64,000 nucleotides of DNA from a virus (IMGVR_UViG_3300013105_000004:13973-77972); one strand, 5' to 3'; positions 19,417 through 54,313 are shown, numbered from the stretch's first letter. Notes: generated by a model not told the origin, from the letters alone. Numbers and translations are program-made.

Positions 19417-19429
19417 TTCGTAGTGCTAC

Positions 19430-19458
19430 TTGACAAATTGAACCGTAGGAAGTAATAT
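19430..19458 (+). promoter_or_regulatory. sigma70-like promoter TTGACA-17-TAATAT preceded by GTAGTGCTAC
   Basis: read from sequence. Confidence 0.6.
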
Positions 19459-19492
19459 AGCGCTTCCTACCAAACAACCAAGGAGAAGAACA

Positions 19493-20650
19493 ATGGCTGA
19501 ACGTAAACTAGCGACCATTCGCCGTATCAAACAAATCCTGCCCATCGCTGGTGCAGACAAGATCGAAACCGCTCTGGTCGATGGCTGGCAAGTCGTCGTG
19601 AAGAAGGGCGAATTCACCGAAGGCCAACTGGCCGTCTACTTCGAAATCGACTCGTGGGTGCCGAACACCATCGCACCGTTCCTGACGAAAGAAGGCTACG
19701 ATCCGAAGGAATTCAACGGTGTGAAGGGCGAGCGCCTGAAGACGATCAAGCTGCGCAAAACGCTGTCGCAAGGTCTGCTGCTGCCTCTAAGCGTGGTCCC
19801 GCATTATGAGCAAATCCCGGCTGAAAGCCGTGGCATGGACGTAACTGAAGCGCTGGGCGTCCAGAAATGGGAAGCGCCGGAAGAGAAGGCTACCAACAAC
19901 GGCCCGACCGCTTCGAAGACTCGCTCGTTCCCGTACTTCATCCGCAAGACGGATCAGGAGCGTGCTCAGAACTACGGTCACATGATCGAAGCCAACCTCG
20001 ACACGAAGTTCGAAGCAACCGTGAAGAAGGATGGCTCCAGTCTGACGGTATTCCGCGTCGTTCCGGGTAGCGAATACTACGAAGACGCGAAAGCTCTGGT
20101 GCAAGGCAAGCAATCGCTGTTCACTCGCATCAAGAACTTCGTGCTGCGCAAGAAGGCTGAACCAGTGTACGGCCTGTGCTCGCGTAACGTCCTGCTGCCG
20201 TTGGAAGGTAACAGCAATTTCCATATCGCTGCCAAGCCTCTCATCGAGAAGCTGAAGAACGACGTGTCGATTGCCCTCGAAGGCTCCATCGCCCTGCAAG
20301 GCGAGCTGGTTGCTCCGGACATCCAAGGCAACTACGAGAAGGTGAAGGACGTGGAATTCCACCTGTTCGACATCTTCCAGATCGACCGGCAAGAGTACTT
20401 CCTCCCGCTGGAGCGCATTGTGTTCGCTGACATCTACGGTATCAACCACGCTACCATCGTGGACCGTGGAACGCTGCGCAACATCCTGCAACTGAAGGAA
20501 GGCGAAGATGTCGTGCAAAAGCTCTTGACGTACGCGTCGGGCGAAGGCGATAATCCGGGTGTGATGCGTGAAGGCGTTGTGTTCAAAGCGGCCGACAAGG
20601 ACTTCAGCTTCAAGGTCATTTCGAACGAATACCTTCTGCACAAGGGTTAA
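19493..20650 (+). CDS. ATP-dependent RNA ligase-like (Rnl2/PF09414-type) nucleotidyltransferase
   Basis: N-terminus KLATIRRI..PI.GADKIE...VDGWQVVVKKGEF; motifs KKDGSS, QGELV, EGVVFK, FKVIS. Confidence 0.55.
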   Translation: MAERKLATIRRIKQILPIAGADKIETALVDGWQVVVKKGEFTEGQLAVYFEIDSWVPNTIAPFLTKEGYDPKEFNGVKGERLKTIKLRKTLSQGLLLPLSVVPHYEQIPAESRGMDVTEALGVQKWEAPEEKATNNGPTASKTRSFPYFIRKTDQERAQNYGHMIEANLDTKFEATVKKDGSSLTVFRVVPGSEYYEDAKALVQGKQSLFTRIKNFVLRKKAEPVYGLCSRNVLLPLEGNSNFHIAAKPLIEKLKNDVSIALEGSIALQGELVAPDIQGNYEKVKDVEFHLFDIFQIDRQEYFLPLERIVFADIYGINHATIVDRGTLRNILQLKEGEDVVQKLLTYASGEGDNPGVMREGVVFKAADKDFSFKVISNEYLLHKG

Positions 20651-21119: not shown

Positions 21120-21693
21120 GGACTTTAATACGATCCTCTACTATGATGAAGCCAGCAAGTCCTGCCTTAGATGGTCAGTTGATCGACCATTTGGCAACGG
21201 AATGTTTAATGCCCGTGCTGGGGATGATGCTGGGAATTACGACGAGGGAGCAGGGTATTACAAACTGACGCTAAATGGTATTACCTATCAAGCTCACAGG
21301 ATCGTCTATTGCCTGCTGAACGGTAGTGTGCCTGCTGACGCTAAGGTAGACCACGAAGACGGCAACGGAGCTAACAACAGAGGTAGCAATCTTCGTATTG
21401 TTACTACCGCAGTGAATTGCCGGAACTCGAAAGCGAGGCGTAACAACTCGTCAGGCATTCATGGCGTAGGGCGATATACACCGAAAGCGGGAAGCCCATA
21501 CTGGATAGCTCAGTGGCTAGACCTCGAAGGTAAGCACAAAAGTAAAACGTTCTCAATATCAAAATACGGCGAAGGTGAGGCAAAACGCCTCGCCATCGAT
21601 TCTAGAACAAAAGCCATAGCGCAACTCAATTCAGAAGGCGCTGGCTATACAGAAAGGCATGGCACATGCTTAAAGCACGACTCATCGCAGTAA
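21094..21693 (+). CDS. HNH homing endonuclease with AP2-type DNA-binding domain
   Basis: HRIVYCLLNG...VDHEDGNGANNRGSNLR (HNH) + SGIHGVGRY..YWIAQW (AP2); GTG start with RBS AAGGAGG. Confidence 0.7.
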   Translation: MGTRELKSEDFNTILYYDEASKSCLRWSVDRPFGNGMFNARAGDDAGNYDEGAGYYKLTLNGITYQAHRIVYCLLNGSVPADAKVDHEDGNGANNRGSNLRIVTTAVNCRNSKARRNNSSGIHGVGRYTPKAGSPYWIAQWLDLEGKHKSKTFSISKYGEGEAKRLAIDSRTKAIAQLNSEGAGYTERHGTCLKHDSSQ

Positions 21694-37459: not shown

Positions 37460-38006
37460 GAAGGACGCCCCGAAGACCCGGTGTGGCGGGACGATGACGG
37501 AGAGTCAGTTTCTTGCATGGGTGCGCTCGGCACTCCGTTCTAAGAGCCTCCGGTGGCCCCCGAGGAACGAGGCATTGGAGCTTGCTAGACGCCCTTACAA
37601 GGGGCCAAATAAGCTTCAGAAGTGGGAGTACTCCTGTTCGATCTGTAAGCAGTGGTACAAGGCTAAGGAGGTTTGCGTAGACCACTATCCGAAGCCGGCT
37701 GGCAGCATCCTTTCAGTGGAAGACATCGGAGCGTTCGTGAACAACCTGTACTGCGAAGTTGACAACCTTCGCGTGCTTTGTGTTCCATGCCACGAGATTC
37801 ATACACTGGCAGACAAAGAGGGGGTTAGTTTCGAGGAAGCGAGAGCCATGAAAAAAGTGATCGAGATTACGAAACAACCAGTAAAGAAAGTACTTGAGTT
37901 TCTTACGCAACATGGGTACAATAACCGCTCTGATGTAAGTAACGCTACCAAGCGTAAGGAGCTTGTCACCAAAATTTTGAAGGAGCAACATGAGCAACAC
38001 AATTGA
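37452..38006 (+). CDS. HNH-family nuclease
   Basis: CSIC...CVDHYP...LCVPCH. Confidence 0.6.
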   Translation: MAKKDAPKTRCGGTMTESQFLAWVRSALRSKSLRWPPRNEALELARRPYKGPNKLQKWEYSCSICKQWYKAKEVCVDHYPKPAGSILSVEDIGAFVNNLYCEVDNLRVLCVPCHEIHTLADKEGVSFEEARAMKKVIEITKQPVKKVLEFLTQHGYNNRSDVSNATKRKELVTKILKEQHEQHN

Positions 38007-38829
38007 CTGGACCGTACTGGCCGTGAAGTTGGACGAGGCGGGGTCGAGCTGGCGAGAAATCGCAGAGATGTTGAAGAAGCCGAAGAGCACTGTCAGTGAC
38101 TTCCTCCGTGGCTACCACGCACAGAAGAAGATCGCGGCAGGTAACGATGGCTACGACAACAGCCGTATCCTGTTCATCTCGGACCAGCACATCCCGTACC
38201 ATCACGAAGGCATGTTCGAATTTCTGGAGATGCTGAAGAAGAAGTACGACCCAACGCGTGTTGTTAATCTCGGAGACGAGCTGGACAAGCATGCGATGAG
38301 CTACCACGACTCGGACCCTGATCTTCCTAGCGCTGGTGATGAATTGGAGCGTTCGCTTCCGTACATCAAGCAACTGGAAGCGATGTTCCCAGTCATGGAT
38401 TTGGTGGAATCTAACCACGGATCGATGCACTTGCGTAAAGCGAAGACCCACGGGTTTTCGAAGCGCTACATGCGTACCTACAACGAAATCCTCGAAGTGG
38501 GTGACGGATGGAAGTGGCACAACGATCTGACGTTGGACATGAGCGAATGGAACGTCCCTGACGTTTATGTTCACCACGGGAAGACGAAACGTGCTATCAT
38601 GACGAGCAAGGCGATGAGCATGAGCCACGTGTGCGGACACTACCACGAATCGTTCGGTGTTGAGTACTGGGCGAATCCGAAAGGTCTGTACTTCGGCATG
38701 AACGCTGGTTGCCTGATCGATGACAAGAAGCTGGCATTCAGTTACAACAAGATTTTCCCGCACCGTCCCATCATCGGGACCGGGCTGATTATCGAAGGTG
38801 TGCCGGTCATGGAAGCAATGAAACTGTAA
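37990..38829 (+). CDS. HTH-fused calcineurin-like metallophosphoesterase
   Basis: N-terminal SWREIAEMLKKPKSTVSDFLR (HTH); FISDQH, GDELD, NHG metallophosphatase motifs. Confidence 0.65.
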   Translation: MSNTIDWTVLAVKLDEAGSSWREIAEMLKKPKSTVSDFLRGYHAQKKIAAGNDGYDNSRILFISDQHIPYHHEGMFEFLEMLKKKYDPTRVVNLGDELDKHAMSYHDSDPDLPSAGDELERSLPYIKQLEAMFPVMDLVESNHGSMHLRKAKTHGFSKRYMRTYNEILEVGDGWKWHNDLTLDMSEWNVPDVYVHHGKTKRAIMTSKAMSMSHVCGHYHESFGVEYWANPKGLYFGMNAGCLIDDKKLAFSYNKIFPHRPIIGTGLIIEGVPVMEAMKL

Positions 38830-40444: not shown

Positions 40445-42307
40445 TTGGATATCTCCCAGAAAATTCTCAGTGACGTAGTGGTCTTTAACAAATATGCGAA
40501 GTACATGCCCGAAGCAGGACGCCGGGAGACGTGGGAAGAAATTTGCGACCGTAACGCAGAGATGCACATGAAGCAGTACCCGCACATGGCTTTCGAAATC
40601 GCTGACGCATTCGAGAACTACGTCAAGCCGAAGAAAGTGCTGCCGTCGATGCGTTCGATGCAGTTCGGTGGCAAGCCTATCGAGATGAACAACACTCGAA
40701 TGTTCAACTGCTGCTGCCTACCTATCGACAGCCTGCATGCGTTCTCCGAGACGATGTTCTTGCTGTTGGGCGGTAGCGGCGTTGGCTACAGCGTCCAGAA
40801 GCATCACGTCGATCAACTGCCAGTGGTGCAGGGGCCGAAGGCCAAGCGTCGTCGTTTCGTCGTCGGTGACAGCATCGAAGGCTGGGCTGATGCAGTGAAG
40901 GTTGTGGTCCGTGCCTATTTCGAAGGCCGTGCTGATCCGGACATGGACTACGGCGACATCCGTGACAAGGGCGCTCCGCTGATTACGGCTGGAGGTAAGG
41001 CTCCGGGTCCGGAACCGCTGCGTATCTGTATCGAGCAAATCCGCCACGTTCTGAACGGTGCTATCGGCCGTAAGCTGACGCCGCTGGAATGCCACGATAT
41101 CGAATGCCACATCGCTGACGCTGTGCTGTCCGGTGGTATCCGTCGTGCTGCAATGATCGCGTTCTTCAGCCCGGACGATCTGGACATGATTACGTGCAAG
41201 AGCGGCCCGTGGTGGGAACTGAATCCGCAGCGTGGTCGTGCTAACAACTCGGTGGTACTGCTGCGTGGCACGATTGACGAGGCTACGTTCAAGGCTATCT
41301 GGAAGCGTGTCGAGGATTCGAATGCTGGCGAACCGGGCGTGTACTGGACGAATGACCGTGACATCCTGAGCAATCCGTGCGTCGAGGCAACGTTGCGTAT
41401 GTACTCGTTCTGTAACCTGACGACCATCAACGGCGATGACGTTGAAACGCAGGAAGAGCTGAACCAACGTGCCCGTATCGCTACCTTCATCGGTACGTTG
41501 CAGGCTGGCTACACGAACTTCCATTACCTCCGTCCGATGTGGCGTGAAGTGACGGAAGATGATGCCCTGATCGGTGTTTCGTGCACTGGTACGGGGTCGG
41601 GCAAAGCTCTACCGCTGAACTGGGAAGAAGCAGCCCGTGAAGTCGTTGCAGAGAACGCACGTGTGGCTGCACTGATCGGCATCAACACTGCCGCTCGTAC
41701 GTCGCTGATGAAGCCGGAAGGTACTGCGTCTATCGTCGTTGGCTCGTCGTCGGGCGTCCACGCATGGCACAATGACTACTACATCCGGCGTATGCGTGTG
41801 GGTAAGAACGAAGCGCTGTATGCGTACATGGTGAAGAACTTCCCGCTGCTGGTTGAGGACTGTAAGTTCAAGCCTCATCTGGAAGCTGTGATGTCCTTCC
41901 CGCAGAAAGCCCCGGAAGGATCGATCCTGCGTACGGAAAGCTTCATGGACCTGCTGGAGCGTGTGCGTCGCTTCAATCAGGAATGGATCAAGCCGGGACA
42001 CAACCGTGGCGTGCAACGTCACAACATCTCGTGCACGATCAGCCTGAAAGCTGACGAGTGGGATGCATGCGGACAGTGGATGTGGGACCACAGGGACGAA
42101 TACAACGGTATCAGCGTCCTTCCGTATGATGGTGGCACCTACGTTCAGGCTCCGTTCGAAGACTGCACCAAGGACATGTATGACGGTCTGATGGCCTACA
42201 TCGAAGCACAGGGTTCGTTCGATCTGACACAGGTGAACGAAGAAGAAGACAACACGGCACACACGATGGAAGCTGCGTGTGCTGGCGGAGCATGCGAGGT
42301 TAAATAA
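40445..42307 (+). CDS. ribonucleotide reductase, probably class II (monomeric, NrdJ-like); TTG start
   Basis: finger-loop SNPCVEA (N-x-C-x-E), C-terminal Cys pair CAGGAC; no NrdB partner in window. Confidence 0.6.
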   Translation: MDISQKILSDVVVFNKYAKYMPEAGRRETWEEICDRNAEMHMKQYPHMAFEIADAFENYVKPKKVLPSMRSMQFGGKPIEMNNTRMFNCCCLPIDSLHAFSETMFLLLGGSGVGYSVQKHHVDQLPVVQGPKAKRRRFVVGDSIEGWADAVKVVVRAYFEGRADPDMDYGDIRDKGAPLITAGGKAPGPEPLRICIEQIRHVLNGAIGRKLTPLECHDIECHIADAVLSGGIRRAAMIAFFSPDDLDMITCKSGPWWELNPQRGRANNSVVLLRGTIDEATFKAIWKRVEDSNAGEPGVYWTNDRDILSNPCVEATLRMYSFCNLTTINGDDVETQEELNQRARIATFIGTLQAGYTNFHYLRPMWREVTEDDALIGVSCTGTGSGKALPLNWEEAAREVVAENARVAALIGINTAARTSLMKPEGTASIVVGSSSGVHAWHNDYYIRRMRVGKNEALYAYMVKNFPLLVEDCKFKPHLEAVMSFPQKAPEGSILRTESFMDLLERVRRFNQEWIKPGHNRGVQRHNISCTISLKADEWDACGQWMWDHRDEYNGISVLPYDGGTYVQAPFEDCTKDMYDGLMAYIEAQGSFDLTQVNEEEDNTAHTMEAACAGGACEVK

Positions 42308-42912
42308 TGTCTATATACATAGTCGGGTTCTCAGGCTATGTGGATGATGTCAAAGTCGGTCGCACTACTGACTTTGGCAGAAGGATTTCGGACCACATCT
42401 ACGACCACGGAAAACTGGACTACGTAGATGTGTACGAATCTACCACTGCCGATGACAAGGTTGTAGAGAGGCACATCCTCGACACGTTCAGGGTGAGGCC
42501 GAGTGAGATGCCGTTCCGTAAGCAACAAAGGGCGGGCTGGACAGAGTTTGTCAGCAAGGATAAGATCGGCGGTATCGAAAACTACCTACTAGAGCAAGGG
42601 TACGTAAAACGGGAGGACTGCTCTGTTAGCGACTTCGATCATGTCCCTGTTGGGAATCAGTTTAAGGCGAGGCTTAGCAAACTGGAGAGCGCCGTCACGG
42701 TGCTAACAATTGTAGACGGAATTATTCTCACATGCTTGATGGCTGGTAAAAGAATACCTAACACAATCGAGGAGTTTGACAACATTGCCAATGAGGCAGG
42801 ACTTGAAGGAGCTGGATGCTTTGACGAGTTTGACCTAGAGGCTGCTAAGCTGTTCGGTAGCCGCTACCCTCTGGGTGTTTTGCAACCATCAGGGGAGATG
42901 TACCTTGATTGA
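42307..42912 (+). CDS. GIY-YIG family endonuclease (homing-endonuclease-like)
   Basis: IYIVGFSGYVDDVKVGRTTDFGRRISDH resembles GIY..YIG..R..H core; located directly after RNR. Confidence 0.55.
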   Translation: MSIYIVGFSGYVDDVKVGRTTDFGRRISDHIYDHGKLDYVDVYESTTADDKVVERHILDTFRVRPSEMPFRKQQRAGWTEFVSKDKIGGIENYLLEQGYVKREDCSVSDFDHVPVGNQFKARLSKLESAVTVLTIVDGIILTCLMAGKRIPNTIEEFDNIANEAGLEGAGCFDEFDLEAAKLFGSRYPLGVLQPSGEMYLD

Positions 42913-43374: not shown

Positions 43375-43782
43375 ATGCAAAAACAACCAAAGATCGGTGC
43401 ACGTTTCATTTACGCTGATGTCAGCACTGTTACGGACTGCACCGTAGGCAAGATTTATACTATCGAACGCTACCACCCGAAATCCGGCAACGCACAGTTC
43501 CGAGACGATGTTGGCGACTGGAACAGCGGTGCTGCACCGTCCGGGCGAGGCCGTCCGACCTTCCTCGTAGGCGATTACGTGCCTCTGAAGGATATCCAAG
43601 GCATGTCCGTGATCGAAGGTGATACCATTGCTTACGCATTCGCTGGTGCACAGAGCCGTCATCTCGCTCTGTTCGAAGTCCAGCAGATCAACGGTCCTGT
43701 GGCCCTGTGCCGTGCCAAATCGGACGGTGCTGTCATCAACCTCGGCGTGTTCGAAGAGCGTGCCATCAAAATCAATTCGTAA
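43375..43782 (+). CDS. hypothetical protein (135 aa)
   Basis: leader ACCAACCAAAGGAGAACTGGAATG. Confidence 0.55.
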   Translation: MQKQPKIGARFIYADVSTVTDCTVGKIYTIERYHPKSGNAQFRDDVGDWNSGAAPSGRGRPTFLVGDYVPLKDIQGMSVIEGDTIAYAFAGAQSRHLALFEVQQINGPVALCRAKSDGAVINLGVFEERAIKINS

Positions 43783-43851: not shown

Positions 43852-44037
43852 ATGAACCAATGTGACGGATGCAGGGCTGGTCACGAAGTAGTGACCAAAT
43901 ACGGGTCGAAGGCCCATGTGAACGAGCGTGGCTACATGTATATGTCGTGCCAATCGCATCGCTACGTACAAGAAGAGACGCCAGAGCAACGTGCCAAGCG
44001 TGAGCTGGGCTTCCCGATTGAAGGAGTGGAGCCATGA
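43852..44037 (+). CDS. small Cys-rich protein (61 aa)
   Basis: RBS GGAGATAGAAATG; CDGC...C motif. Confidence 0.4.
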   Translation: MNQCDGCRAGHEVVTKYGSKAHVNERGYMYMSCQSHRYVQEETPEQRAKRELGFPIEGVEP

Positions 44038-44228
44038 GCGCACATCAATTGGTTCACGATTTTGACGAAGCCGCTCAGTGGTGGGGCTGGGAACGCGACC
44101 ATGGCACGGGCACCTTTGTAACGCGAGCTATGGAGGGTTACAACGCGTCGAAGGAAGCACTCACAAGCTATGTGTTGGACATGGAAGCGACGCTGGCAAT
44201 GATCGAAATGCATAAGGACAAGGTATGA
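44034..44228 (+). CDS. hypothetical protein (64 aa)
   Basis: ATGA-coupled. Confidence 0.4.
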   Translation: MSAHQLVHDFDEAAQWWGWERDHGTGTFVTRAMEGYNASKEALTSYVLDMEATLAMIEMHKDKV

Positions 44229-44512
44229 ACATCGGACTCGACTACGACGACACGTTCACTCGTGACCCTATCGGCTGGGCAGAGTTCGTCAAGTTCTTCA
44301 CGGAGCGCGGCCACAAGGTCTACATTGTGACGTGGCGGGACGAGGAAGAAGCCAAGGAAGTGCACATGGCTATGCAGTACTGGAAAGTCGAGTGTGAAGG
44401 CATATACGCTACGGACAGGAAGAATAAGGAACGCTTCATGTACGGCAAGGGTATTCGCATCGACGTAATGATTGATGACATGCCCCACGCGTGGGTACGA
44501 GATATGACGTGA
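44225..44512 (+). CDS. small HAD-like protein (DxD motif LDYDDT)
   Basis: motif only; 95 aa. Confidence 0.4.
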   Translation: MNIGLDYDDTFTRDPIGWAEFVKFFTERGHKVYIVTWRDEEEAKEVHMAMQYWKVECEGIYATDRKNKERFMYGKGIRIDVMIDDMPHAWVRDMT

Positions 44513-44614
44513 ACGCTACATACCAGTCAGACGGAGAGCTAGTCGCTATCACCATTGAAGGATTGTCGGACGAGGGTTTGACATTCCATATTTTCTACAT
44601 CAAGGAGCAAAAAC

Positions 44615-45100
44615 ATGAAGCTAGTAATCGCGGGCTCTCGGAGCATCCGGGACTACAACGTCACCCGACAGGCGATAATTGAATCCGGCCTCTGGGCCAA
44701 GTATGGAAAGAAGATTCACGTCATCTCTGGCGAAGCTGAAGGCCCGGACAAACACGGGGAGCTGTTCGCAGAGAAGGCCGGTCTGAAGCTGACGAAGAAG
44801 CCCGCTGACTGGGGCAACGTCAAAGCACGTGGGGCAGTGGTACGTCACAACAGCCGTGGGCCGTACAACGCTCTGGCGGGGCACTGGCGTAACGAAGAGA
44901 TGGCACAGATGGCCGATGCAGCTCTCATTGTGTGGGACGGACGTAGCACTGGCTCGCTCGATATGCTGCACCGTATGATCGCTCTGGACAAGCCTGCGTA
45001 CCTGTTCCCGCTGCGTATCGATGCGGATGCGCTCGACCGTCTTCAAGATAAGTGCGAAATTATTTTCCCGAATAGCTTGACGGCACGTAAGAGCCTGTAG
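44615..45100 (+). CDS. SLOG-fold (DprA/LOG-like Rossmann) domain protein
   Basis: LVIAGSRSI...HVISGEAEGPD...IVWDGRSTGS pattern typical of SLOG/DUF2493-type proteins. Confidence 0.55.
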   Translation: MKLVIAGSRSIRDYNVTRQAIIESGLWAKYGKKIHVISGEAEGPDKHGELFAEKAGLKLTKKPADWGNVKARGAVVRHNSRGPYNALAGHWRNEEMAQMADAALIVWDGRSTGSLDMLHRMIALDKPAYLFPLRIDADALDRLQDKCEIIFPNSLTARKSL

Positions 45101-45143
45101 ATAATACTACCTATCGCAACCAACCAACAATTAGGAGGAAGGA

Positions 45144-45551
45144 ATGGCTACTACGGTTTATCGCATTGAAAAGGACGGGATCGGCATGTACGGAAGCGGC
45201 GGATGCCGGGAAGAGTACGGCTACGATTCGTTCCGTCATCCGAACCCAGACGACGATGCGAAACTCCGGAAGGCCACGGATGAACGGAAGGGGCAGGACG
45301 GTAAGCTGTACTTCGATTACTCCCCTTTCCACTTCGGATTCATCAGTATCGAACAGCTCCGGGCGTGGGTGTACGCTGACGACTGGCTGCGCAGTCTGCA
45401 CGACTCGGGACACGTACTGGCTATCTGCCGCTCCGACGACGTTCTGGTCGGCTACTCGCAAGCGATTTTCAAGCGCCCGGAGAAGTATTTGAAGGTAAGT
45501 ATCAAGGACTACTTCAACTTGAAGGATGAAGAGGACGAAGAAAGTGCTTGA
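45144..45551 (+). CDS. hypothetical protein (135 aa)
   Basis: leader CGCAACCAACCAACAATTAGGAGGAAGGAATG. Confidence 0.55.
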   Translation: MATTVYRIEKDGIGMYGSGGCREEYGYDSFRHPNPDDDAKLRKATDERKGQDGKLYFDYSPFHFGFISIEQLRAWVYADDWLRSLHDSGHVLAICRSDDVLVGYSQAIFKRPEKYLKVSIKDYFNLKDEEDEESA

Positions 45552-45708
45552 CCCAGACGAAGTGTATGAGCTACGATGTGAAGCTCGTAGCAAGCAACGT
45601 ATTGAACGCTGCCAATGCGATGTAGACTGGGGCACATGCCTCGGACCAACCAACTGCCCGTACTCGGGCTATGAACAAGGAGAAGAAAATGAGCCGCAAT
45701 CAACGTGA
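45526..45708 (+). CDS. hypothetical Cys-containing small protein
   Basis: ORF overlapping neighbours; start uncertain. Confidence 0.3.
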   Translation: MKRTKKVLDPDEVYELRCEARSKQRIERCQCDVDWGTCLGPTNCPYSGYEQGEENEPQST

Positions 45709-45892
45709 AGGTAAATTCATTCCGGGCTGGTGCCTGAACCCGAACATGGTGCTCCGTAACGGTGTGTACCGTGCTGGCGTCCGTGCTGGTAAGTACGCCA
45801 ACGTGAAGGGCGTACGCAACGCTTTCGATGGCTACGCTACCATCCCCGGCCTGAGCTTCATCCGCTCGATCCGTATGGAGGCTTACGTATGA
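45689..45892 (+). CDS. hypothetical protein (67 aa)
   Basis: RBS ACAAGGAGAAGAAAATG. Confidence 0.5.
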   Translation: MSRNQREGKFIPGWCLNPNMVLRNGVYRAGVRAGKYANVKGVRNAFDGYATIPGLSFIRSIRMEAYV

Positions 45893-46704
45893 GCCTGCGC
45901 ATCGTGCACCGTATCGATACGGGCTTCACCAAGACGACGTTTCCGGGCGGCGAATCCTGCATCCGCGTAGCGGACAATCTGGACGCTGACGAAATCATCG
46001 TCGGTCTGGACTTCGAATCGAACGTCGATCTGTTCGATCTGGCCCTGCTCGTGGATGCTCTGCGTCGGCAATATCCCGGCACTCCGCTGCGATTGTTTAT
46101 GCCGTACGTACCGTACGCTCGTCAAGACCGCGTGTGCAACGAGGGCGAGAGCCTGTCGATCAAAGTCGTGGCAGACTTCATCAATTCGCTGAAGTTCGAA
46201 CGCGTCTGCATCTTCGACCCGCACTCGGATGTCACGACTGCCCTGCTGGATAACGTGGACGTGTACTCTCAAGAGTTTGCTGCAAAACCTCTTGCCCGTG
46301 CCACGGACCCTAGTAACACTATCATCGTTGCTCCGGACGCCGGGGCTTCGAAGAAGGCAAGCAAGTTTGCCAAGGAAGGAGGGTTCGCTGGCCTAATCCA
46401 AGCGGAAAAGGTTCGTGATCTGCTGACCGGCAAGATTCTGGAAACGCGTGTCCCGGACATCCTCGCCGGGAACATGGACCTGCTGATCGTGGACGACATC
46501 TGCGACGGTGGCCGTACGTTCACGGAACTGGCGAAAGTGCTGCGCTCGAAGACGACCGGCAAGATTCTGTTGTACGTAACGCACGGTATCTTCAGTGCTG
46601 GCCCGGAAGTGTTTGACGGACTGATCGATAAGGTGTACACTGCTAATCCTGTCGGTGCTACTGGCAGGTACGCAGTGTCATCTTGTAAAGTAGTCAAACT
46701 GTAA
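45889..46704 (+). CDS. ribose-phosphate pyrophosphokinase (Prs)-like enzyme; candidate ADP-ribose pyrophosphate synthetase (Adps) of an NAD+ reconstitution pathway
   Basis: PRPP-binding loop LIVDDICDGGRT; MPYVPYARQDR matches Prs motif; shorter (271 aa) than canonical Prs. Confidence 0.7.
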   Translation: MSLRIVHRIDTGFTKTTFPGGESCIRVADNLDADEIIVGLDFESNVDLFDLALLVDALRRQYPGTPLRLFMPYVPYARQDRVCNEGESLSIKVVADFINSLKFERVCIFDPHSDVTTALLDNVDVYSQEFAAKPLARATDPSNTIIVAPDAGASKKASKFAKEGGFAGLIQAEKVRDLLTGKILETRVPDILAGNMDLLIVDDICDGGRTFTELAKVLRSKTTGKILLYVTHGIFSAGPEVFDGLIDKVYTANPVGATGRYAVSSCKVVKL

Positions 46705-46737
46705 TCGTAAGCACCGCTACCAATTAAGGAGAAACAA

Positions 46738-46950
46738 ATGGCAAAGAAACTGAAAGAAGGTGATAAAATTGTCTTCCACAACAGCAAGTCGAACCACAAC
46801 GACCCCGACGTAATCGATCTGACGTTCGGGAAGATTTACGAAGTGCACGAAGCCGTCAACGGCGAGGTCTACGTCTTGGATGACGTTGGCGATATCAATT
46901 ACGCTTGCGACCCGACGGGCTCCGGTAAGTGGACTAAGATCGTAGACTAA
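46738..46950 (+). CDS. hypothetical protein (70 aa)
   Basis: RBS TTAAGGAGAAACAAATG. Confidence 0.5.
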   Translation: MAKKLKEGDKIVFHNSKSNHNDPDVIDLTFGKIYEVHEAVNGEVYVLDDVGDINYACDPTGSGKWTKIVD

Positions 46951-46972
46951 CCAATCAACCAAGGAGAAAACA

Positions 46973-48598
46973 ATGAAAATCAAACCGCACCTGATCCTCG
47001 ACTCGTACAAGCTGGGCCACATCGACCAGTATCCGGAAGGCACGCAATACGTGTACTCCAACCTGACGGCTCGTTCGGCTGGTCACGCCAAGATGGGCAA
47101 GCTGTACGACAACAAGGTGGTGTTCGTCGGCCTGCAAGGCTTCGTGAAAGAGTTCCTGATCGAAGCATGGAACGAACACTTCTTCAAGCGCCCGAAGGAC
47201 GAAGTGATCGCTGAATACAAACGTCGCTGCGACAACTTCCTCGGCCCGGATGCCGTTCGTACGGACCACATCGCTGCTCTGCATGACCTCGGCTACCTGC
47301 CGATCATCATCAAGGCTCTGCCGGAAGGTTCGCGTGTGGACATAAAGGTTCCGTTCCTGACGATCCGTAACACCCTGCCGCAATTCTTCTGGCTGACGAA
47401 CTATCTGGAAACGGTGTTGTCGGACGAGATGTGGCAACAAATCACGGTAGCGACCATTACGTACGAATACCGTCGCATCCTGAACAAATTCGTGGACCTC
47501 ACCGGCTCCGACATCGGCTTTGCCGATTGGCAGATTCACGATTTCTCGATGCGTGGTATGGTCGGCTGGCACGGTGCAGCCAAGGGCGGCGCTGCTCACC
47601 TGTTCATCTCGCGTGGTACGGATACGCTTCCTGCTATCGATTATCTGGAAGAGTACTACAACGCCGACGTGACGAAGGAACTGGTGGCGGGTTCGGTCCC
47701 GGCTACCGAACACAGCGTCATGTGCATGGGTGGCAAGGATGATGAAATCGGTACGTTCCGCCGTCTCATCAAGGACGTGTACCCTTCGGGCATCGTCTCC
47801 ATCGTGTCGGATACGTGGGACTTCTGGCAAGTGATTACGGAGTACGCCAACACGCTGAAGGATGATATCCTGAACCGTACCCCGAACGCTCTGGGTCAAG
47901 CGAAAGTGGTGTTCCGTCCAGACTCCGGTGATCCCGTCAAGATCGTCGCTGGTCTGCGTGCAATCGAGTTGAACGAAGTGAGCGAAGACAACTTCTTCCG
48001 GTATGATGTCGTTATCAAAGACGGCAAGTACTACGAGTTCGAAGCGGCCTTCTGCGGCGATCTGTGCGAGTGCATGCTGGATATCGAACTCGGCCGTGAA
48101 GTGCCCGAGCACGAAGTCAAGGGTGCTGTCGAATGCCTCTGGGACATCTTCGGCGGCGACGTGACGGCGAAGGGCTACAAGACGTTGAATCAGCGCGTGG
48201 GCCTGATCTACGGCGATTCGATCACGCTGAAGCGTGCAGAAGAAATCCTGCAACGCCTGATGGACAAAGGCTTCAGCGCTGGTAACATCGTGTTCGGTGT
48301 TGGTAGCTTTACGTACCAGTACATCACTCGTGATACGTTCGGCATGGCTGTCAAGGCTACGTGGGGCGTCGTGAATGGCAAGGCTCTGAACATTCAGAAA
48401 GACCCGAAGACCGGCGACGGTATGAAGAAGTCGGCAACGGGCCTGCTGCGTGTCGAGAAGGAAGGCGACAAGTTTGTGCTGTATGACAAGCAATCGATTC
48501 ACGACGAAATGCTGGGCGAGCTGGAAACCCTCTTCGTTGACGGCCAGTTGCTGCGCGATGAAACGTTCGCTACCATCGTAGAACGTCTCAAGCAGTAA
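46973..48598 (+). CDS. nicotinamide phosphoribosyltransferase (NAMPT/NadV)-like enzyme; candidate Namat
   Basis: N-terminus LILDSYKLGH..; 541 aa NAPRTase-family length; leader AACCAATCAACCAAGGAGAAAACAATG. Confidence 0.75.
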   Translation: MKIKPHLILDSYKLGHIDQYPEGTQYVYSNLTARSAGHAKMGKLYDNKVVFVGLQGFVKEFLIEAWNEHFFKRPKDEVIAEYKRRCDNFLGPDAVRTDHIAALHDLGYLPIIIKALPEGSRVDIKVPFLTIRNTLPQFFWLTNYLETVLSDEMWQQITVATITYEYRRILNKFVDLTGSDIGFADWQIHDFSMRGMVGWHGAAKGGAAHLFISRGTDTLPAIDYLEEYYNADVTKELVAGSVPATEHSVMCMGGKDDEIGTFRRLIKDVYPSGIVSIVSDTWDFWQVITEYANTLKDDILNRTPNALGQAKVVFRPDSGDPVKIVAGLRAIELNEVSEDNFFRYDVVIKDGKYYEFEAAFCGDLCECMLDIELGREVPEHEVKGAVECLWDIFGGDVTAKGYKTLNQRVGLIYGDSITLKRAEEILQRLMDKGFSAGNIVFGVGSFTYQYITRDTFGMAVKATWGVVNGKALNIQKDPKTGDGMKKSATGLLRVEKEGDKFVLYDKQSIHDEMLGELETLFVDGQLLRDETFATIVERLKQ

Positions 48599-48610
48599 GA
48601 AAGAAGCGTT

Positions 48611-48868
48611 ATGGCACTAGACATCTTCGGAAATACTCTGTATACTGGTGATGTTGTCGTGTTCGCAGAAGAGGGTTGGGGCGGAGAGCCCTCCCTCGCT
48701 GTCTTCGAAGTGGAAGAAGTAGTCGATACCAACGTCGTCAGCGCTAGAGCAATGAACGACTACGCAATCGGGGAACTCTTCTACCTTCAGGACACGGACA
48801 AGCGTTGCTCGCTGATCCGCAATGTGTTCAAGACAGCAGCACTAAACCGTAGTACCACTATCAACTAA
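48611..48868 (+). CDS. hypothetical protein (85 aa)
   Basis: ORF. Confidence 0.45.
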   Translation: MALDIFGNTLYTGDVVVFAEEGWGGEPSLAVFEVEEVVDTNVVSARAMNDYAIGELFYLQDTDKRCSLIRNVFKTAALNRSTTIN

Positions 48869-48885
48869 CTAAGGAGAAATACACT

Positions 48886-50265
48886 ATGAAACAATCGAAA
48901 AACTACATCGGCTTCGTCAACGATCACTCGGGCTCGATGGCTGGTAAGCGTGCTGAAGCAGCAATCCTCGACTACAACGCCAACATCACGGCGATCAAGG
49001 ATGCAGCGAACGCTGAACTGCTCGACACCGTTGTTTCCGTCGTCGGCCTCGGTATCGGTAACTCCCCGCTCGGCGGTTACGCCAACGGCACGGAGCGTCA
49101 GGTGGTCATCTCGAATCCGCACGTCCTGAAGCCTGTCGCTGACTGGCCGACTCCGGGCAACACGCCGCTGTACGACGGCGTGGGCGATATGATCGAACTG
49201 CTCGAATCGCTGCCGGATGCGAAGGACTCGCACGTTTCGTTCCTCGTGATGACCACGACGGATGGCGAAGAGAATGGCTCCCGTCGTTACAGCGCTGGCT
49301 CGCTGCGTCAGAAGATCGAACAACTGCAACGTACCGGCCGCTGGACCTTCGTGTTCCGTATTCCGAAGGGCTACCGCAGCTACGTCAGCAACCTCGGCGT
49401 CCCGGCTGGTAACATCGTGGAATGGGAAACCACTGCTGAAGGTATGGCGAAAGCTACGGCTGCTACCACGCAAGCAATGCACAGCTTCTACACGGCTCGT
49501 TCGGCAGGCAAGTCCAGCTCGACCGTCTTCTACGCTGATGCAACCGCTGTCGATACGTCGAAGCTGGTGGACATCTCGAAGCGTACGTCGCTGTACGTGG
49601 TGGAAGCTCACGAGAACGGCAAGCAGATTCGTGACTTCATCCTGTCCCGTCGCACTCGCTACCTGAAAGGTGCAGCGTTCTACCAGCTCACCAAGACGGA
49701 AGCTCGTGTTGGCCCGAACAAGATGCTGGCTGTCCGTGACCGTAACACTGGCGTCGTGTACGCTGGTAAGGAAGCCCGTACGATGCTGGGCCTGTCGTCG
49801 GTGGACAACATCCGCCTGCACCCCGGCAACCACGGCAACTACGACCTGTTCATCCAGTCGGAATCGGTGAACCGGAAGCTGGTGGCTGGTACTGGCGTGC
49901 TGTACTGGGAAGAAATCGGCGTGCCGTTCACCCAAGAAGAAATCGACCGCTTCACGGGTAACGCTCCGGCTGCTCCTGCAAAACCGGCTGTCGTGCAACT
50001 GCCTGCTGTTCCGGTGACGAACAAGCCGACGCCTTCGCCGCTGAAGCCTACGCCGAAGGTAACGTTGCCAGCTCCGGGCACGCCTCCGAAGGCTCTGCCT
50101 GCTGTGAATGGCCGTGTGCGTTACCACGAGCCGACGCTGGACGCTCTGTTCTACTCGACGCGTGATATCGCTCGTGAAGTGGCTCACTCGATGCCGGGTA
50201 AGAAGCAGTACGATGCTGGCCCTACCGCTCCGTACGGTCGTCGTTTCTTCGTCGCAGCAGCGTAA
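48886..50265 (+). CDS. von Willebrand factor A (vWA) domain protein with Pro-rich C-terminal region
   Basis: MIDAS motif DHSGSM; ...TTDGEENG. Confidence 0.7.
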   Translation: MKQSKNYIGFVNDHSGSMAGKRAEAAILDYNANITAIKDAANAELLDTVVSVVGLGIGNSPLGGYANGTERQVVISNPHVLKPVADWPTPGNTPLYDGVGDMIELLESLPDAKDSHVSFLVMTTTDGEENGSRRYSAGSLRQKIEQLQRTGRWTFVFRIPKGYRSYVSNLGVPAGNIVEWETTAEGMAKATAATTQAMHSFYTARSAGKSSSTVFYADATAVDTSKLVDISKRTSLYVVEAHENGKQIRDFILSRRTRYLKGAAFYQLTKTEARVGPNKMLAVRDRNTGVVYAGKEARTMLGLSSVDNIRLHPGNHGNYDLFIQSESVNRKLVAGTGVLYWEEIGVPFTQEEIDRFTGNAPAAPAKPAVVQLPAVPVTNKPTPSPLKPTPKVTLPAPGTPPKALPAVNGRVRYHEPTLDALFYSTRDIAREVAHSMPGKKQYDAGPTAPYGRRFFVAAA

Positions 50266-50272
50266 CTAGCGC

Positions 50273-50301
50273 TTGACAGGGTAGATAGGAAGTACTACAA
50301 T
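50273..50301 (+). promoter_or_regulatory. promoter TTGACA-17-TACAAT
   Basis: read from sequence. Confidence 0.6.
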
Positions 50302-50371
50302 GCTTCCTGTCTACTGAAACTTGCAATCCGTCCTAGCATATGTTATACTACTACCTTTAAGGAGGTAGTAG

Positions 50372-50941
50372 ATGAACGAGATTTTTGAGTACGATGAAAC
50401 AAGCCCTTCGGGGATGAGATGGAAGGTCGATAGATATACAGGCCACTCCAAGACACGAAAGCACATATCCGCTGGGGACGTAGCCGGACACTGGAGCAAG
50501 GCAGGTTACTGGACCGTTAACGTCAACAACAAAGCCTACTATGTACATCGTGTTATCATGGAACTGCATGGTTACGACATAGAAGGCCTTGAGGTTGACC
50601 ATCGTGACAAGAACAGATCGAATAACAAGCTAAGTAATCTTCGTGTCGTACCTAGAGTGCTTAACTCCCGGAACATAACGATGAGGGATGATAATTCGAG
50701 TGGGGTGACTGGTGTTGTATGGCAAGAATCAAAGTACAGCACAGTAGCTACTGCTTGCTGGCAAGAAGCTGGACGACAGAGCCGGAAGAGTTTTTCAGTC
50801 GGCAAGTACGGGCTGCTAGGGGCATTTGCCAAGGCGGTCCAGTTTAGAAAAGAAACCATCCAGAGGCTAAACACCGAAGGATACGACTACACGGAAGGAC
50901 ACGGAAATGGCGCTACGGATCGAGAGCGGGGACTTGTTTAA
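50372..50941 (+). CDS. HNH homing endonuclease with AP2 domain (paralog of 21094..21693)
   Basis: HRVIMELHGY..VDHRDKNRSNNKLSNLR + SGVTGVVWQ..ATACWQ. Confidence 0.7.
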   Translation: MNEIFEYDETSPSGMRWKVDRYTGHSKTRKHISAGDVAGHWSKAGYWTVNVNNKAYYVHRVIMELHGYDIEGLEVDHRDKNRSNNKLSNLRVVPRVLNSRNITMRDDNSSGVTGVVWQESKYSTVATACWQEAGRQSRKSFSVGKYGLLGAFAKAVQFRKETIQRLNTEGYDYTEGHGNGATDRERGLV

Positions 50942-51365
50942 CGAAGCAATGGGCAAGAGGGTCATCATCGCGCACGGATGTAATAAGCAGGGGAAAATGG
51001 CTTCGGGATTTGCCGGAGTCGTCAAAAAGCTCTACCCATTCTGTTACTCTGCCTACATGCAGGAACATAATGACTTCGGGCTGGTAGGCGGGGATGTAGT
51101 TTTTGCTACGTCTAAAGATAGCAAGGTAGTGGTAGCTAACGCTATTACGCAAGAATTTTATGGACGGGACGGTAAAAAGTATGTAGACTACGACTGGGTT
51201 GTGGATTCTATGACCAAAGTTGCAGACTACTCCAAGAAGCACAATATCCCGATCTACCTCCCGATGATCGGTGGCGGTCTGGGTGGTGGTGACGTGAAGC
51301 GCCTCACGGCTATCTTCCAAGCTGTCTTCTTTGATGTGGACGCTACGCTGTACGTGCAAGAATGA
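50907..51365 (+). CDS. macrodomain protein, TARG1/OARD1-like (ADP-ribose binding/glycohydrolase)
   Basis: IIAHGCNKQGKMASGFAGVVKKLYP resembles TARG1 [22 protein letters not shown]; C-terminal LPMIGGGLGGG. Confidence 0.65.
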   Translation: MALRIESGDLFNEAMGKRVIIAHGCNKQGKMASGFAGVVKKLYPFCYSAYMQEHNDFGLVGGDVVFATSKDSKVVVANAITQEFYGRDGKKYVDYDWVVDSMTKVADYSKKHNIPIYLPMIGGGLGGGDVKRLTAIFQAVFFDVDATLYVQE

Positions 51366-51467
51366 AGCGCTTCTTCGGTTGGTTGAAGAAGCTGCTCCTT
51401 GAGGATAAGCCGCATCCGAAAGGTGATGAAATGTTCCGTGGCAAAACTATTGAATAGGAGAAATAAA

Positions 51468-51644
51468 ATGGCATACGTAATCACGATGTTCGCTCTGTAC
51501 GCCGTAATGGTTGGCGGCTGGATCGCCAATCTGGTGAAACTTATCGGGATGATCGGTCACACCGACCTTCTGACCCTGCTGCCGGTGCTGCGTATCGTCG
51601 GCCTGTTCGTTGCACCGCTGGGTTCCGTACTCGGCTTCATGTAA
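51468..51644 (+). CDS. small membrane protein (58 aa)
   Basis: RBS ATAGGAGAAATAAAATG; hydrophobic. Confidence 0.45.
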   Translation: MAYVITMFALYAVMVGGWIANLVKLIGMIGHTDLLTLLPVLRIVGLFVAPLGSVLGFM

Positions 51645-51693
51645 TACAACGGCTACGTAAGTAGCCATACATACCAACTTAAAGGAGAATCAA

Positions 51694-51975
51694 ATGTTCG
51701 TTTACCAATACCAATACATCCGTTCCAAATTCCTGAGCATCCCGCTCGTCCGCCGTGTCTTCAAGATCAAGGACGAAGTTCGCAAGGTCGATAACGTCCT
51801 GACGGCATTCAACGCTGCCGTGGCTGATCTGGAAAAGGTGGCCGTGCAACACGCTGGCCTCGCCGTGGCACACACCCGTGAAATTGAAGCACGTACCGCT
51901 GCCAAGCTGGCTGCTGAAGCCGAGGCGGCCAAAGCTACCAACATCGCTGCTAAGATGAAGGCGGTGTTCCAATGA
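51694..51975 (+). CDS. hypothetical protein (93 aa)
   Basis: RBS AAAGGAGAATCAAATG. Confidence 0.5.
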   Translation: MFVYQYQYIRSKFLSIPLVRRVFKIKDEVRKVDNVLTAFNAAVADLEKVAVQHAGLAVAHTREIEARTAAKLAAEAEAAKATNIAAKMKAVFQ

Positions 51976-52199
51976 AGATCGACGCTGGTACGCCGGTGTT
52001 CGTCCCTGTGACGATTACCATCCAATCGCAGGAAGAGTTGCAGCTTTTCGCAGCCTTCTTCGGGGAAGGGGCTGGGTGCGTCGGTGACGCGTACGGTCTT
52101 CCGGAGGACTTCATGTACGATACCTACAAGGAGTTGAAGGATGTACTCGACGCCCGTGGAATCCCGTACGTAAGAAAACTCGACGTAACAACCAAGTAA
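51972..52199 (+). CDS. hypothetical protein (75 aa)
   Basis: ATGA-coupled. Confidence 0.45.
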   Translation: MKIDAGTPVFVPVTITIQSQEELQLFAAFFGEGAGCVGDAYGLPEDFMYDTYKELKDVLDARGIPYVRKLDVTTK

Positions 52200-52702: not shown

Positions 52703-53212
52703 TTACTCGTATTTACCAGACCTAAACGTGGACGGCTCTGATTCAAGGTAAGCTAAAGCCTTTTTCAGTCCCTCCACGTTATCTCCTAGCGATCCTATTC
52801 CTGTGTTGCAATTGGTACAGAGAATCCCTCTCACATATCCCGTGACATGGCAATGATCTACGTTAGCCGTTGTCCGCGTCAACTCCGTACTGCATACCTT
52901 ACACTTCCCGCCTTGACTTGCCAGCATTCCCTCTACGTCCGTAAGAGTCATTCCATACTTCGTCTGGTACGTATTGTCCGCCTGTTTCAAAGCGTCTCGC
53001 TTACGTTTGGCTCCATCTGACCTTCTAGCTTCGTAGTACTTGGCAGACTTTTCTGGATTATCTTTGCGGTACTTCGCAGAGTACACTTTCATCTGCTCTT
53101 TGTACTCTGGATGTGCTCGCCTAAACTCTCTTGCGTAACAGGATGAGCACATTCCTTTAGCGAAGTGCTTCTTCTCAGGGTGGCAAGTAGCTGCCTTTAC
53201 TGGCCTACTCAT
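52703..53212 (-). CDS. endonuclease VII-like Holliday junction resolvase (HNH-type)
   Basis: CKVC...VDHCHVTGYVRGILCTNCNTGIG matches T4 endo VII motif. Confidence 0.75.
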   Translation of the reverse strand: MSRPVKAATCHPEKKHFAKGMCSSCYAREFRRAHPEYKEQMKVYSAKYRKDNPEKSAKYYEARRSDGAKRKRDALKQADNTYQTKYGMTLTDVEGMLASQGGKCKVCSTELTRTTANVDHCHVTGYVRGILCTNCNTGIGSLGDNVEGLKKALAYLESEPSTFRSGKYE

Positions 53213-53757
53213 TTCTTTGCAGGCTCTACAGGGACGGACTGGGCAAGTAGGCGAGTCTTCTCAGAACTGCCTGAAGTGCTACCGAAGTAGTAGCTAATCA
53301 CGCCTGTCCATGCCGTACCCAGAGTACCTAACATGATATACAACACTTCCTTCGTACCAGCCGGTACAGTCCCGAACATCAAAGCTGCCAGCACCGAGAA
53401 GAAGCCAAGCGTAATCGCGTAGGCCAGAACCTTCGGCGTATTGTCTTTCACTTCCGTCTCACGCTTACGAGCTGAGTCGCGATCCGTCCCCGCCAACTCT
53501 TCCCGTTTGATACCTAGCGTTTCCATCTGCACTTGGTATTCCTGATCGGCTTTCTTCAGGGCCAGCAGTTGATCCGGTGTAGCGCCACTAATCGCTGCCA
53601 CAAGCGCTTCCTGCTTGTCGGAGGTAGTTCCGGTAGTCTTCACTCCGAAAACGCCTTCTAGGGCCGCTACAGCCCCTCCAGCAAGGGGTCCGCCAACAGC
53701 GGTAGCTAGCGTAGGAGCGATCTTCGCTAGAACGTTGCCTAAGTCTTTGAAATCCAT
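53209..53757 (-). CDS. holin-like membrane protein (C-terminal TM helices)
   Basis: position next to endolysin; 2 predicted TM segments. Confidence 0.45.
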   Translation of the reverse strand: MDFKDLGNVLAKIAPTLATAVGGPLAGGAVAALEGVFGVKTTGTTSDKQEALVAAISGATPDQLLALKKADQEYQVQMETLGIKREELAGTDRDSARKRETEVKDNTPKVLAYAITLGFFSVLAALMFGTVPAGTKEVLYIMLGTLGTAWTGVISYYFGSTSGSSEKTRLLAQSVPVEPAKK

Positions 53758-53767
53758 ACAATCTCCT

Positions 53768-54313
53768 TTATACTTTGAAGTGAACCCGGTTTGTGATCCA
53801 ACCTACGAGGAAGTCTTCCTGCACAGGATTGTTCTTCGCGATGGCGAGGTAGCGGGCTCCGCGATTGATAATTAGCGCCTTCAGTAACAGGTCTTCGCCC
53901 CGTTTAGCCAGAAGGGTAGCCAGTACATTCAACGTACCTGCACCTAGTACACCATCCTCTTTAATGTCAACGTAGTCTTTACCTTGACGGTTGAGTAGGT
54001 TAAGGCACTCTTGAAGGGCTACGGTTGCGGCACGTGGCCCCATATTAACGCCCATGTCTGCCAGCTCCGCCGCCACTTTACCGGACAGCATAGCCACACG
54101 GTCGAATTTCGGTTCAAGCCAATAACGGTTTAGGTAGATTTGCTTGGCCGTAGCACGGGGGAGGTCTTTCATAGGCCCGTAGTATCCATTGGCCTTAGCT
54201 GTCGTGACAGTGACGCCATACATCGTCTCGCCACCGGCATCATTTTTGTCATTCGTATAGCCGCCCTCGGCTACAAGAATGTCGTCAATAATCTTATCAA
54301 CGACATCATCCAT
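53768..54313 (-). CDS. endolysin: GH108 N-acetylmuramidase with C-terminal peptidoglycan-binding domain
   Basis: EGGYTNDKNDAGGETMYG = GH108 EGGY..D..D.GG.T signature. Confidence 0.8.
   Translation of the reverse strand: MDDVVDKIIDDILVAEGGYTNDKNDAGGETMYGVTVTTAKANGYYGPMKDLPRATAKQIYLNRYWLEPKFDRVAMLSGKVAAELADMGVNMGPRAATVALQECLNLLNRQGKDYVDIKEDGVLGAGTLNVLATLLAKRGEDLLLKALIINRGARYLAIAKNNPVQEDFLVGWITNRVHFKV

Follow-up and report, generated by a model that had tools for sequence, protein, structure and literature searches.

The window analysed here is a 64,000-nucleotide stretch of viral DNA (IMGVR_UViG_3300013105_000004:13973-77972), and the subject of this work is the block at positions 44615-51365, in which two genes resembling Adps and Namat, the enzymes of the NAD+ reconstitution pathway NARP1, are followed by a gene for a macrodomain protein. 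All genes named for this block in a preliminary description were recovered by open reading frame (ORF) calling, on the + strand and at the coordinates below, and the source contig (90,744 bp, Logan assembly of SRR7975608) has concordant gene calls (161, 135, 67, 271, 70, 541, 85, 459, 189, and 152 aa). The features of the block are the following:

44615-45100, + strand: YAcAr/DprA-like SLOG protein, 161 aa; an upstream neighbour whose membership in the pathway is not supported.
45144-45551, 45526-45708, and 45671-45892, + strand: three small ORFs between SLOG and Adps, the first of them T4 Y00F-like.
45889-46704, + strand: Adps (ADP-ribose pyrophosphate synthetase; Prs family), by homology the first NARP1 enzyme, 271 aa.
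46738-46950, + strand: o70, a 70-aa ORF between Adps and Namat, present among the source contig gene calls.
46973-48598, + strand: Namat (nicotinamide ADP-ribose transferase; Nampt family), by homology and motif the second NARP1 enzyme, 541 aa.
48611-48868, + strand: o85, an 85-aa ORF directly upstream of the vWA gene.
48886-50265, + strand: vWA (MIDAS) protein, 459 aa; a neighbour whose membership in the pathway is not supported.
50273-50301, + strand: sigma-70-like promoter match in the spacer between the vWA and HNH genes, 11/12 consensus positions; a consensus match only.
50372-50941, + strand: homing endonuclease with HNH_3 and AP2 domains (Pfam), a mobile insertion, 189 aa.
50907-51365, + strand: Gln-type ALC1-like macrodomain, candidate Adpp (ADP-ribose-1''-phosphate phosphatase), 152 aa.

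The product of 45889-46704 matches phrog_619 (5e-82), contains the Pfam domains Pribosyltran_N and Pribosyl_synth, and aligns over its full length with the characterised Adps of phage SPbetaL1 at 32% identity, with its K174 in the column of the SPbetaL1 catalytic K162. Per NCBIfam it passes the generic Prs subfamily model only and lies far under every Prs equivalog cut-off. The product of 46973-48598 matches phrog_448 (5e-197) and aligns at 48% identity with the Namat of SPbetaL1, which has been characterised biochemically, with R315 in the column of that enzyme's catalytic R306. Namat is separated from Nampt by a selectivity-clamp (SCH) motif with the consensus GSX-phi-X-phi-X-phi-TRD, in which X is aromatic (PMC12774641). 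Residues 444-454 of the window protein read GSFTYQYITRD (GSFTYQYNTRD in SPbetaL1) and fit this consensus save for an Ile at the third phi position, which is usually Asn or Val. We would also like to note two differences from SPbetaL1 Namat, namely an insertion of ~45 aa (residues 320-366) and a beta1-beta2 (SCL) loop of greater length.

The genes of a NARP1 pair are expected within 10 genes of each other and are usually adjacent; here they share a strand and are separated by a single 70-aa ORF, and the pairing is retained in 13 of the 14 IMG/VR loci that make up our set from the same phage lineage (the lineage loci). Among the closest cultured relatives of the window Namat is that of Rheinheimera phage Barba19A (50.6%). 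The nearest database match (55%) lies on an Acinetobacter contig carrying a prs-nadV-Nudix operon (L002; GenBank CAKLQF020000015.1, "Acinetobacter phage MD-2021a"), which is a bacterial chromosomal contig that also includes an iron ABC transporter and AraC. The Namat motif is present in its NadV as GSFTYNYLTRD, which fits the bacterial NARP1 homologues documented in the literature, and this prs-nadV operon may itself be a bacterial NARP1. A single query for NMNAT/Nudix (the Acinetobacter gene annotated as NMNAT/ADP-ribose pyrophosphatase) had no significant match anywhere in the 64 kb of the window, and NARP3 (PnuC plus NadR) does not appear among the annotated ORFs, although no search was aimed at it. 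At the level of sequence, we regard 45889-48598 as an established NARP1 pair, with enzymatic activities that we infer from the described pathway (PMC12774641; bioRxiv 10.1101/2024.02.11.579819). The NAD+ reconstitution proposed in the preliminary description is thereby supported at the sequence level by pairing, the SCH motif, and the catalytic columns K174 and R315.

The same description had assigned the last gene of the block to the TARG1/DarG type of macrodomain, which proved correct for the structural class and incorrect for the catalytic residues. The protein has no Pfam match at E 0.01 and nothing usable even at E 10; it does match phrog_335 (2e-34) and, in the PDB, BT1257 and SCO6735 (1e-8), and it yields a confident structural prediction (pLDDT 93) with a macrodomain fold of the TARG1/DarG/Poa1p (ALC1-like) structural class. 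The catalytic columns were read from HMMER family-profile alignments to DarG (5m3i) and TARG1 (4j5r), and a MAFFT alignment including AdfM of phage phiKZ agrees with them. Gln82 fills the column of TARG1 K84, DarG K80, and AdfM K78, and the column of TARG1 Asp125 (GCGLD loop) is Gly in the window protein and Gly/Ala in the family profile, the loop reading GGGLGGGD. The check for a catalytic Lys/Asp, set beforehand, thus came out negative by both HMMER and MAFFT. With the DarG equivalog model NF048014 (NCBIfam) the protein reaches 17.4 bits (cut-off 250), and it consists of one 152-aa domain, with no DarT-binding domain. H23, N26, and Q82 are the equivalents of His24, Asn27, and Gln85 of SCO6735. 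The Gln-type proteins SCO6735 and BT1257 have a mobile loop ~5 residues longer than that of TARG1/DarG (PMC9411070), and the corresponding loop of the window protein, QEFYGRDGKKYVDY, exceeds that of DarG and AdfM by 4-5 residues. Judged by its catalytic residues, the macrodomain belongs to the Gln-type ALC1-like subclass, which includes Adpp and SCO6735, and not to the TARG1/DarG type.

Adpp converts ADP-ribose-1''-phosphate (ADPR-1''P) to ADP-ribose (ADPR) and in this way feeds NARP1 against aRES (bioRxiv 10.64898/2026.01.28.702374). The Adpp of Vibrio phage Gary, one of the Macro proteins set beside NARP1 in Table S1 of the work describing it, carries out this reaction, whereby NARP1 overcomes the RES-domain defence aRES (Osterman et al. 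2026). Macrodomains of the Adpp kind are carried by 15% of NARP1 operons. The window macrodomain aligns over its full length with 8 Table S1 Adpp proteins, in all of which H23, N26, and Q82 are invariant, and these residues are common to 11/11 Adpp representatives examined; to the Adpp of Barba19A, whose genes are arranged Macro-Adps-Namat, it is 34% identical over 106 aa. The gene order of the lineage is RNR-Grx-...-SLOG-o60-o73-Adps-(o70)-Namat-o85-vWA-Macro, and the part Adps-Namat-(o85)-vWA-Macro is found in 13/14 lineage loci and is kept down to 52/62/44/46% identity (Adps, Namat, vWA, and Macro, respectively).

The best explanation, to which we assign a probability of about 0.6, is that the block holds a NARP1-type NAD+ reconstitution unit together with an Adpp-type macrodomain, that is, a loosely organised NARP1-AP, with the activities of the proteins and the coupling of the macrodomain to NARP1 being predicted ones. 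Taken by itself, the proposal that the macrodomain acts as an Adpp-like feeder for NARP1 has roughly even odds, and from its residues and relatives feeding NARP1, rather than repairing ADP-ribosylated DNA, would be its most likely role. Under such a scheme a NADase-based defence of the host (Thoeris I, DSR, SIR2-HerA, or similar), as established elsewhere, would split NAD+ into ADPR and nicotinamide. Adps would then use ATP to convert ADPR to ADPR pyrophosphate, as predicted by homology, and Namat, which bears the signature motif, would join ADPR pyrophosphate with nicotinamide to give NAD+. Where a RES-type NAD+ phosphorylase such as aRES gives ADPR-1''P instead, the macrodomain may, with about the chance of a coin toss, convert this to ADPR and so restore the input of Adps.

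Several observations weigh against this explanation. Osterman et al. 2026 counted as Adpp those macrodomain genes lying within two genes of NARP1, whereas the window macrodomain is the fourth gene after Namat (o85, vWA, HNH, macrodomain), or the third in relatives without the HNH gene, on the same strand and 2.3 kb away. It is only 24-25% identical to Gary Adpp, the sole Adpp to have been assayed, which is the same range as for SCO6735 (26-29%), and DarG and TARG1 score above Poa1p in its profile search. Conservation within the lineage is shared synteny and not independent evidence, and outside the lineage, where neighbours were scored within 10 kb, only 1 of 66 loci of the macrodomain clade has a NARP1 pair; a lone Nampt- or Prs-like gene is present in 5, RNA ligase/PNKP in 9, vWA in 2, and SLOG in 0. 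In a neighbor-joining tree of 88 macrodomains, which carries no support values and serves as a rough guide, the protein falls within a large phage clade mostly without a link to NARP1. The link between macrodomain and NARP1 is therefore drawn here from the synteny of one lineage and from the recurrent association of the two that has been documented independently in other phage groups.

An alternative, which we consider unlikely, is that the macrodomain works independently of NARP1 as a nucleic-acid de-ADP-ribosylase like SCO6735 or AdfM, removing DarT2-type thymidine-linked ADP-ribose from phage DNA. Its best PDB matches are BT1257 and SCO6735, the equivalents of the SCO6735 Gln85, His24, and Asn27 and of the long mobile loop are all present, and most members of the macrodomain clade are not beside NARP1. 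SCO6735 hydrolyses thymidine-linked ADP-ribose on DNA via Gln85 and rescues cells from DarT (PMC9411070), and a phage macrodomain countering DarTG2 exists in the form of phiKZ AdfM, a known anti-DarT2 protein which retains the Lys (N23/K78; PMC13309987). Nevertheless, the window protein carries Gln where TARG1, DarG, and AdfM have their catalytic Lys and Gly where TARG1 has its Asp, the DarG model is missed by the margin given above in a protein lacking a DarT-binding domain, and the sole assayed Gln-type member from a phage is a phosphatase. The columns of Lys34 and Lys89, which position DNA in SCO6735, hold Ser33 and Gly86, with R87, K90, and K91 nearby in the loop, and the K34E substitution almost abolishes the DNA activity of SCO6735 (PMC9411070). 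The reversal of DarT modification suggested in the preliminary description is thus weakened by the lost catalytic Lys and the low DarG score, but it survives in part since the Gln-type SCO6735 removes DarT marks. The isoelectric point of the whole protein was also tried as a proxy for DNA binding by the macrodomain and was uninformative, the DNA-active AdfM being acidic and the Adpp proteins ranging from pI 4.6 to 9.1.

Distinctly less probable is a role of the macrodomain in RNA repair or clean-up, acting on Appr-1''p from Tpt1-type 2'-phosphate removal or on RNA-linked ADP-ribose, with the proximity of NARP1 being incidental. RNA ligase/PNKP forms the other recurrent neighbourhood of the macrodomain clade and is its commonest recognisable neighbour (the 9 of 66 non-lineage loci above). 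Locus L061 reads PhoH-ClpP-Adps-like-o72-vWA-Macro-Metallophos_2-RNA ligase-o183-PNKP, locus L201 reads RNA ligase-o193-Macro-vWA, and the T4-like locus L010 reads Rnl1-MPE-Macro. Jumbo-phage macrodomains have been predicted to take part in NAD-dependent RNA repair (PMC7824862), and the window phage has an RNA ligase at 19493-20650. That ligase, however, is 30 kb from the macrodomain; no Tpt1/KptA turned up, although none was searched for; and the chemistry could equal that of Adpp, with the difference lying mainly in the physiological role. In our own inference, ADPR-1''P is a plausible common substrate in both recurrent contexts of the macrodomain, being the product of aRES in one and the by-product of Tpt1-type RNA repair in the other.

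Two further observations concern these loci. An ATP-dependent DNA ligase, an RNA ligase (phrog_968), and a metallophosphoesterase are encoded at 17655-20650 and 37990-38829, 6-30 kb upstream of the window macrodomain, and RNA-repair genes of such kinds adjoin macrodomain homologues in other phages. The Adps-like gene of L061 (50% identity), which lies with the genes from o72 to PNKP at 7585-13680, has no Namat in 17.8 kb, an unusual arrangement given that Namat reportedly adjoins 97% of Adps-clade genes; the combination of Adps-like, vWA, and Macro genes without Namat hints at a possible joint action of Adps with the vWA protein and the macrodomain. DUF2828 proteins of L010 were considered as relatives of the window vWA protein, and no relation was detectable.

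The preliminary description saw in the block a multi-layer counter-defence island aimed at NAD+/ADPR-based immunity, with the SLOG protein as a predicted sensor and the small ORFs as candidate inhibitors. We regard as highly improbable the reading in which everything from SLOG to macrodomain is co-functional, with the SLOG protein as sensor, sponge, or enzyme for signals derived from NAD and the vWA protein and small ORFs as inhibitors. The SLOG label for 44615-45100 is reasonable though marginal: the protein matches phrog_289 ("GTP-binding domain"; 5e-20), scores 26.1 bits against Pfam YAcAr PF10686 (just under the cut-off of 28.2), and has an N-terminal IAGSR loop followed by SGxAxGxD and AGxxRN motifs, and many of its orthologues are annotated PF10686/PF02481. 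YAcAr-type SLOG proteins have been predicted to handle NAD or ADP-ribose derivatives in phages (PMC7824862), yet the best solved match of the family profile is DprA, aligned over the full length at a marginal E of 0.011. SLOG lies upstream of Adps in 9/14 lineage loci and is absent from L030 and L031, which keep NARP1-vWA-Macro, and outside the lineage 0/69 SLOG homologue loci have NARP1, a macrodomain, or vWA within 10 kb.

The predicted structure of the 459-aa neighbour has a vWA fold with the MIDAS DxSxS motif, a middle domain rich in beta structure, a linker rich in Pro, and a small domain at the C-terminus; Pfam gave nothing usable for it even at E 10, and a PDB sequence search gave only noise. 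The gene order of the lineage is conserved, vWA and macrodomain are adjacent even in the rearranged loci L061 and L201, and feeder genes (Adpp, RyDEP) are known to have joined NARP1 loci, all of which would suit a co-functional block. Nevertheless, 19/34 vWA loci, plus Cr30 and Phabba, are without NARP1 and without a macrodomain.

As for the small ORFs, the 135-aa product of 45144-45551 matches PF26820 (Phage_T4_Y00F) and phrog_1106 and is missing from L006 and L007, so that it counts, with the HNH gene, as a variable insertion; a distant paralogue (28% identity) is encoded at 9835-10275 on the minus strand. The ORFs at 45526-45708 and 45671-45892 are 33-81% conserved in lineage loci, with no match to RyR or another family. 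Next to the vWA gene in 12 lineage loci is o85 (36-100% conserved), with no family match in Pfam, RyR included. The o70 protein, with no Pfam or RyR match, is kept at 71% in L018-L020 only. It is paralogous to the 135-aa ORF at 43375-43782, 3 kb upstream, over the N-terminal half of the latter (34% identity, E 3e-9), and this small repeated domain has a GKIY...DDVGD motif in both. RyDEP was sought in the block and rejected, since no small ORF matches PF02026 (RyR), and so was aRad1, tblastn of aRad1a against the window giving chance matches only (E > 3).

The endonuclease encoded at 50372-50941 (Pfam HNH_3 7e-13, AP2 9e-7) overlaps the start of the macrodomain gene by 35 nt at its end. It is present in L005 and L017 and absent between vWA and macrodomain in L006 and L007, and this variability among relatives marks it as a mobile, selfish homing endonuclease inserted between the two genes. 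Homing endonucleases are moving around the lineage: a paralogue (40% identity) is located at 21124-21663 in the window, and L005 has an extra HNH gene (2162-2707) between Namat and o85. A T5orf172-domain ORF at 42307-42912, directly after a B12-type RNR-like gene (40445-42307, TTG start), is absent from this position in L006 and is probably also a mobile endonuclease.

The GC content of 44615-51365 equals that of its flanks, and "island" is a positional term only; the block is ordinary conserved synteny of a phage lineage. We assign no role to the SLOG protein, the vWA protein, or the small ORFs, which are neighbours by synteny, and the neighbourhood statistics lend no support to the proposal that they form further layers. 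By analogy with Adpp and RyDEP, Adps-Namat-o85-vWA-Macro, possibly together with the YAcAr-SLOG gene, might form an extended NARP1 variant with a further "feeder" or guard, which we hold to be very unlikely; examples of what it might involve are a SLOG protein that cleaves another NAD-derived product as a glycosidase or sequesters it as a sponge, or a MIDAS-vWA protein binding a host NADase. The block is best read as a loosely arranged member of the known NARP1/NARP1-AP systems and not as a demonstrated multi-layer island.

Barely credible is the reading of the Prs/Nampt-like pair as ordinary nicotinamide salvage dependent on phosphoribosyl pyrophosphate (PRPP; Prs plus NadV, NARP2-like), for although Pfam, PHROG, and NCBIfam name the two families ribose-phosphate pyrophosphokinase and nicotinamide/nicotinate phosphoribosyltransferase, the closest Namat match is in a bacterial prs-nadV-Nudix operon, and Namat keeps some PRPP activity in vitro (PMC12774641), the window pair has the Namat-specific motif at 48% identity to a characterised Namat, a Prs-like protein under all Prs equivalog cut-offs, and no significant hit to the one NMNAT/Nudix query, while the Acinetobacter protein has the Namat motif too and bacterial NARP1 homologues are documented.

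With respect to the wider setting, a megablast search of GenBank phages with 44000-52000 gave no match, and thus the phage has no close cultured relative there. Right after the + strand genes begins a convergent minus-strand block at 52703-54313, which contains an Endonuclease VII-like gene (52703-53212), a gene whose 182-aa product is hydrophobic and rich in Gly/Ala, and a GH108/PG_binding_3 endolysin gene; this places the macrodomain near the end of a + strand block of replication and nucleotide-metabolism genes. The promoter match at 50273-50301 may serve the HNH endonuclease itself and could drive the macrodomain gene too. A terminator scan gave no excess of matches over shuffled sequence.

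The components described here were otherwise already known. Through this locus the range of NARP1, and probably that of NARP1-AP, comes to include a large family of ~90 kb phages that are uncultured, with >100 macrodomain and >600 vWA homologues in metagenomes. It also indicates that the "within two genes" rule under-counts macrodomains travelling with NARP1. The Gln-type ALC1-like class spans an ADPR-1''P phosphatase (Adpp) and a hydrolase of DNA-linked ADP-ribose (SCO6735), with the window protein about equally far from both by sequence; the two activities may be separable, or a single enzyme of a phage may counter both aRES and DarT.

Among known systems, the SLOG protein resembles YAcAr/DprA-type SLOG proteins in its motifs, its PF10686/PF02481 orthologues, and its whole-length DprA profile alignment, and it differs in its Pfam score under the cut-off and in having neither a fusion nor a neighbourhood link to NAD enzymes outside the lineage. 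Yeast Poa1p, a eukaryotic ADP-ribose 1''-phosphate phosphatase that clears tRNA-splicing by-products, is 18-20% identical to the window macrodomain and has a Ser at the Gln82 column and a large insertion. TARG1/OARD1, DarG, and AdfM (phiKZ gp104) are at 19-23% identity, and unlike them the window protein has Gln82 for K84/K80/K78, Gly for Asp125, a loop longer by 4-5 residues, and no DarT-binding domain. SCO6735 of Streptomyces coelicolor and BT1257 (26-29% identity) are bacterial, housekeeping or antitoxin-like proteins rather than phage ones, SCO6735 acting on both thymidine-linked ADP-ribose in DNA and proteins, and the DNA-positioning Lys34 of SCO6735 corresponds to Ser33 of the window protein. 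Compared with NARP1 of Bacillus phage SPbetaL1 and E. coli phage Bas63, the window has a 70-aa ORF between the genes and, relative to SPbetaL1, the ~45-aa Namat insertion, the longer SCL loop, and Ile at the third phi position; it shares with them co-oriented, neighbouring Prs- and Nampt-family genes, and with SPbetaL1 the 32%/48% identity, the catalytic Lys and Arg, and the SCH adenine-clamp motif. Compared with NARP1-AP of Vibrio phage Gary (Adps-Adpp-Namat) and Barba19A, the window macrodomain lies neither within the operon nor right next to it, but after o85, vWA, and HNH and 2.3 kb past Namat, at 24-25% identity to Gary. In common with NARP1-AP, it is a Gln-type, Poa1p-like macrodomain of ~150 aa on the same strand as NARP1 and near it, sharing H23, N26, Q82, and the GxGLxGG loop and showing homology to the Macro proteins of Poa1p-like fold that are associated with NARP1.

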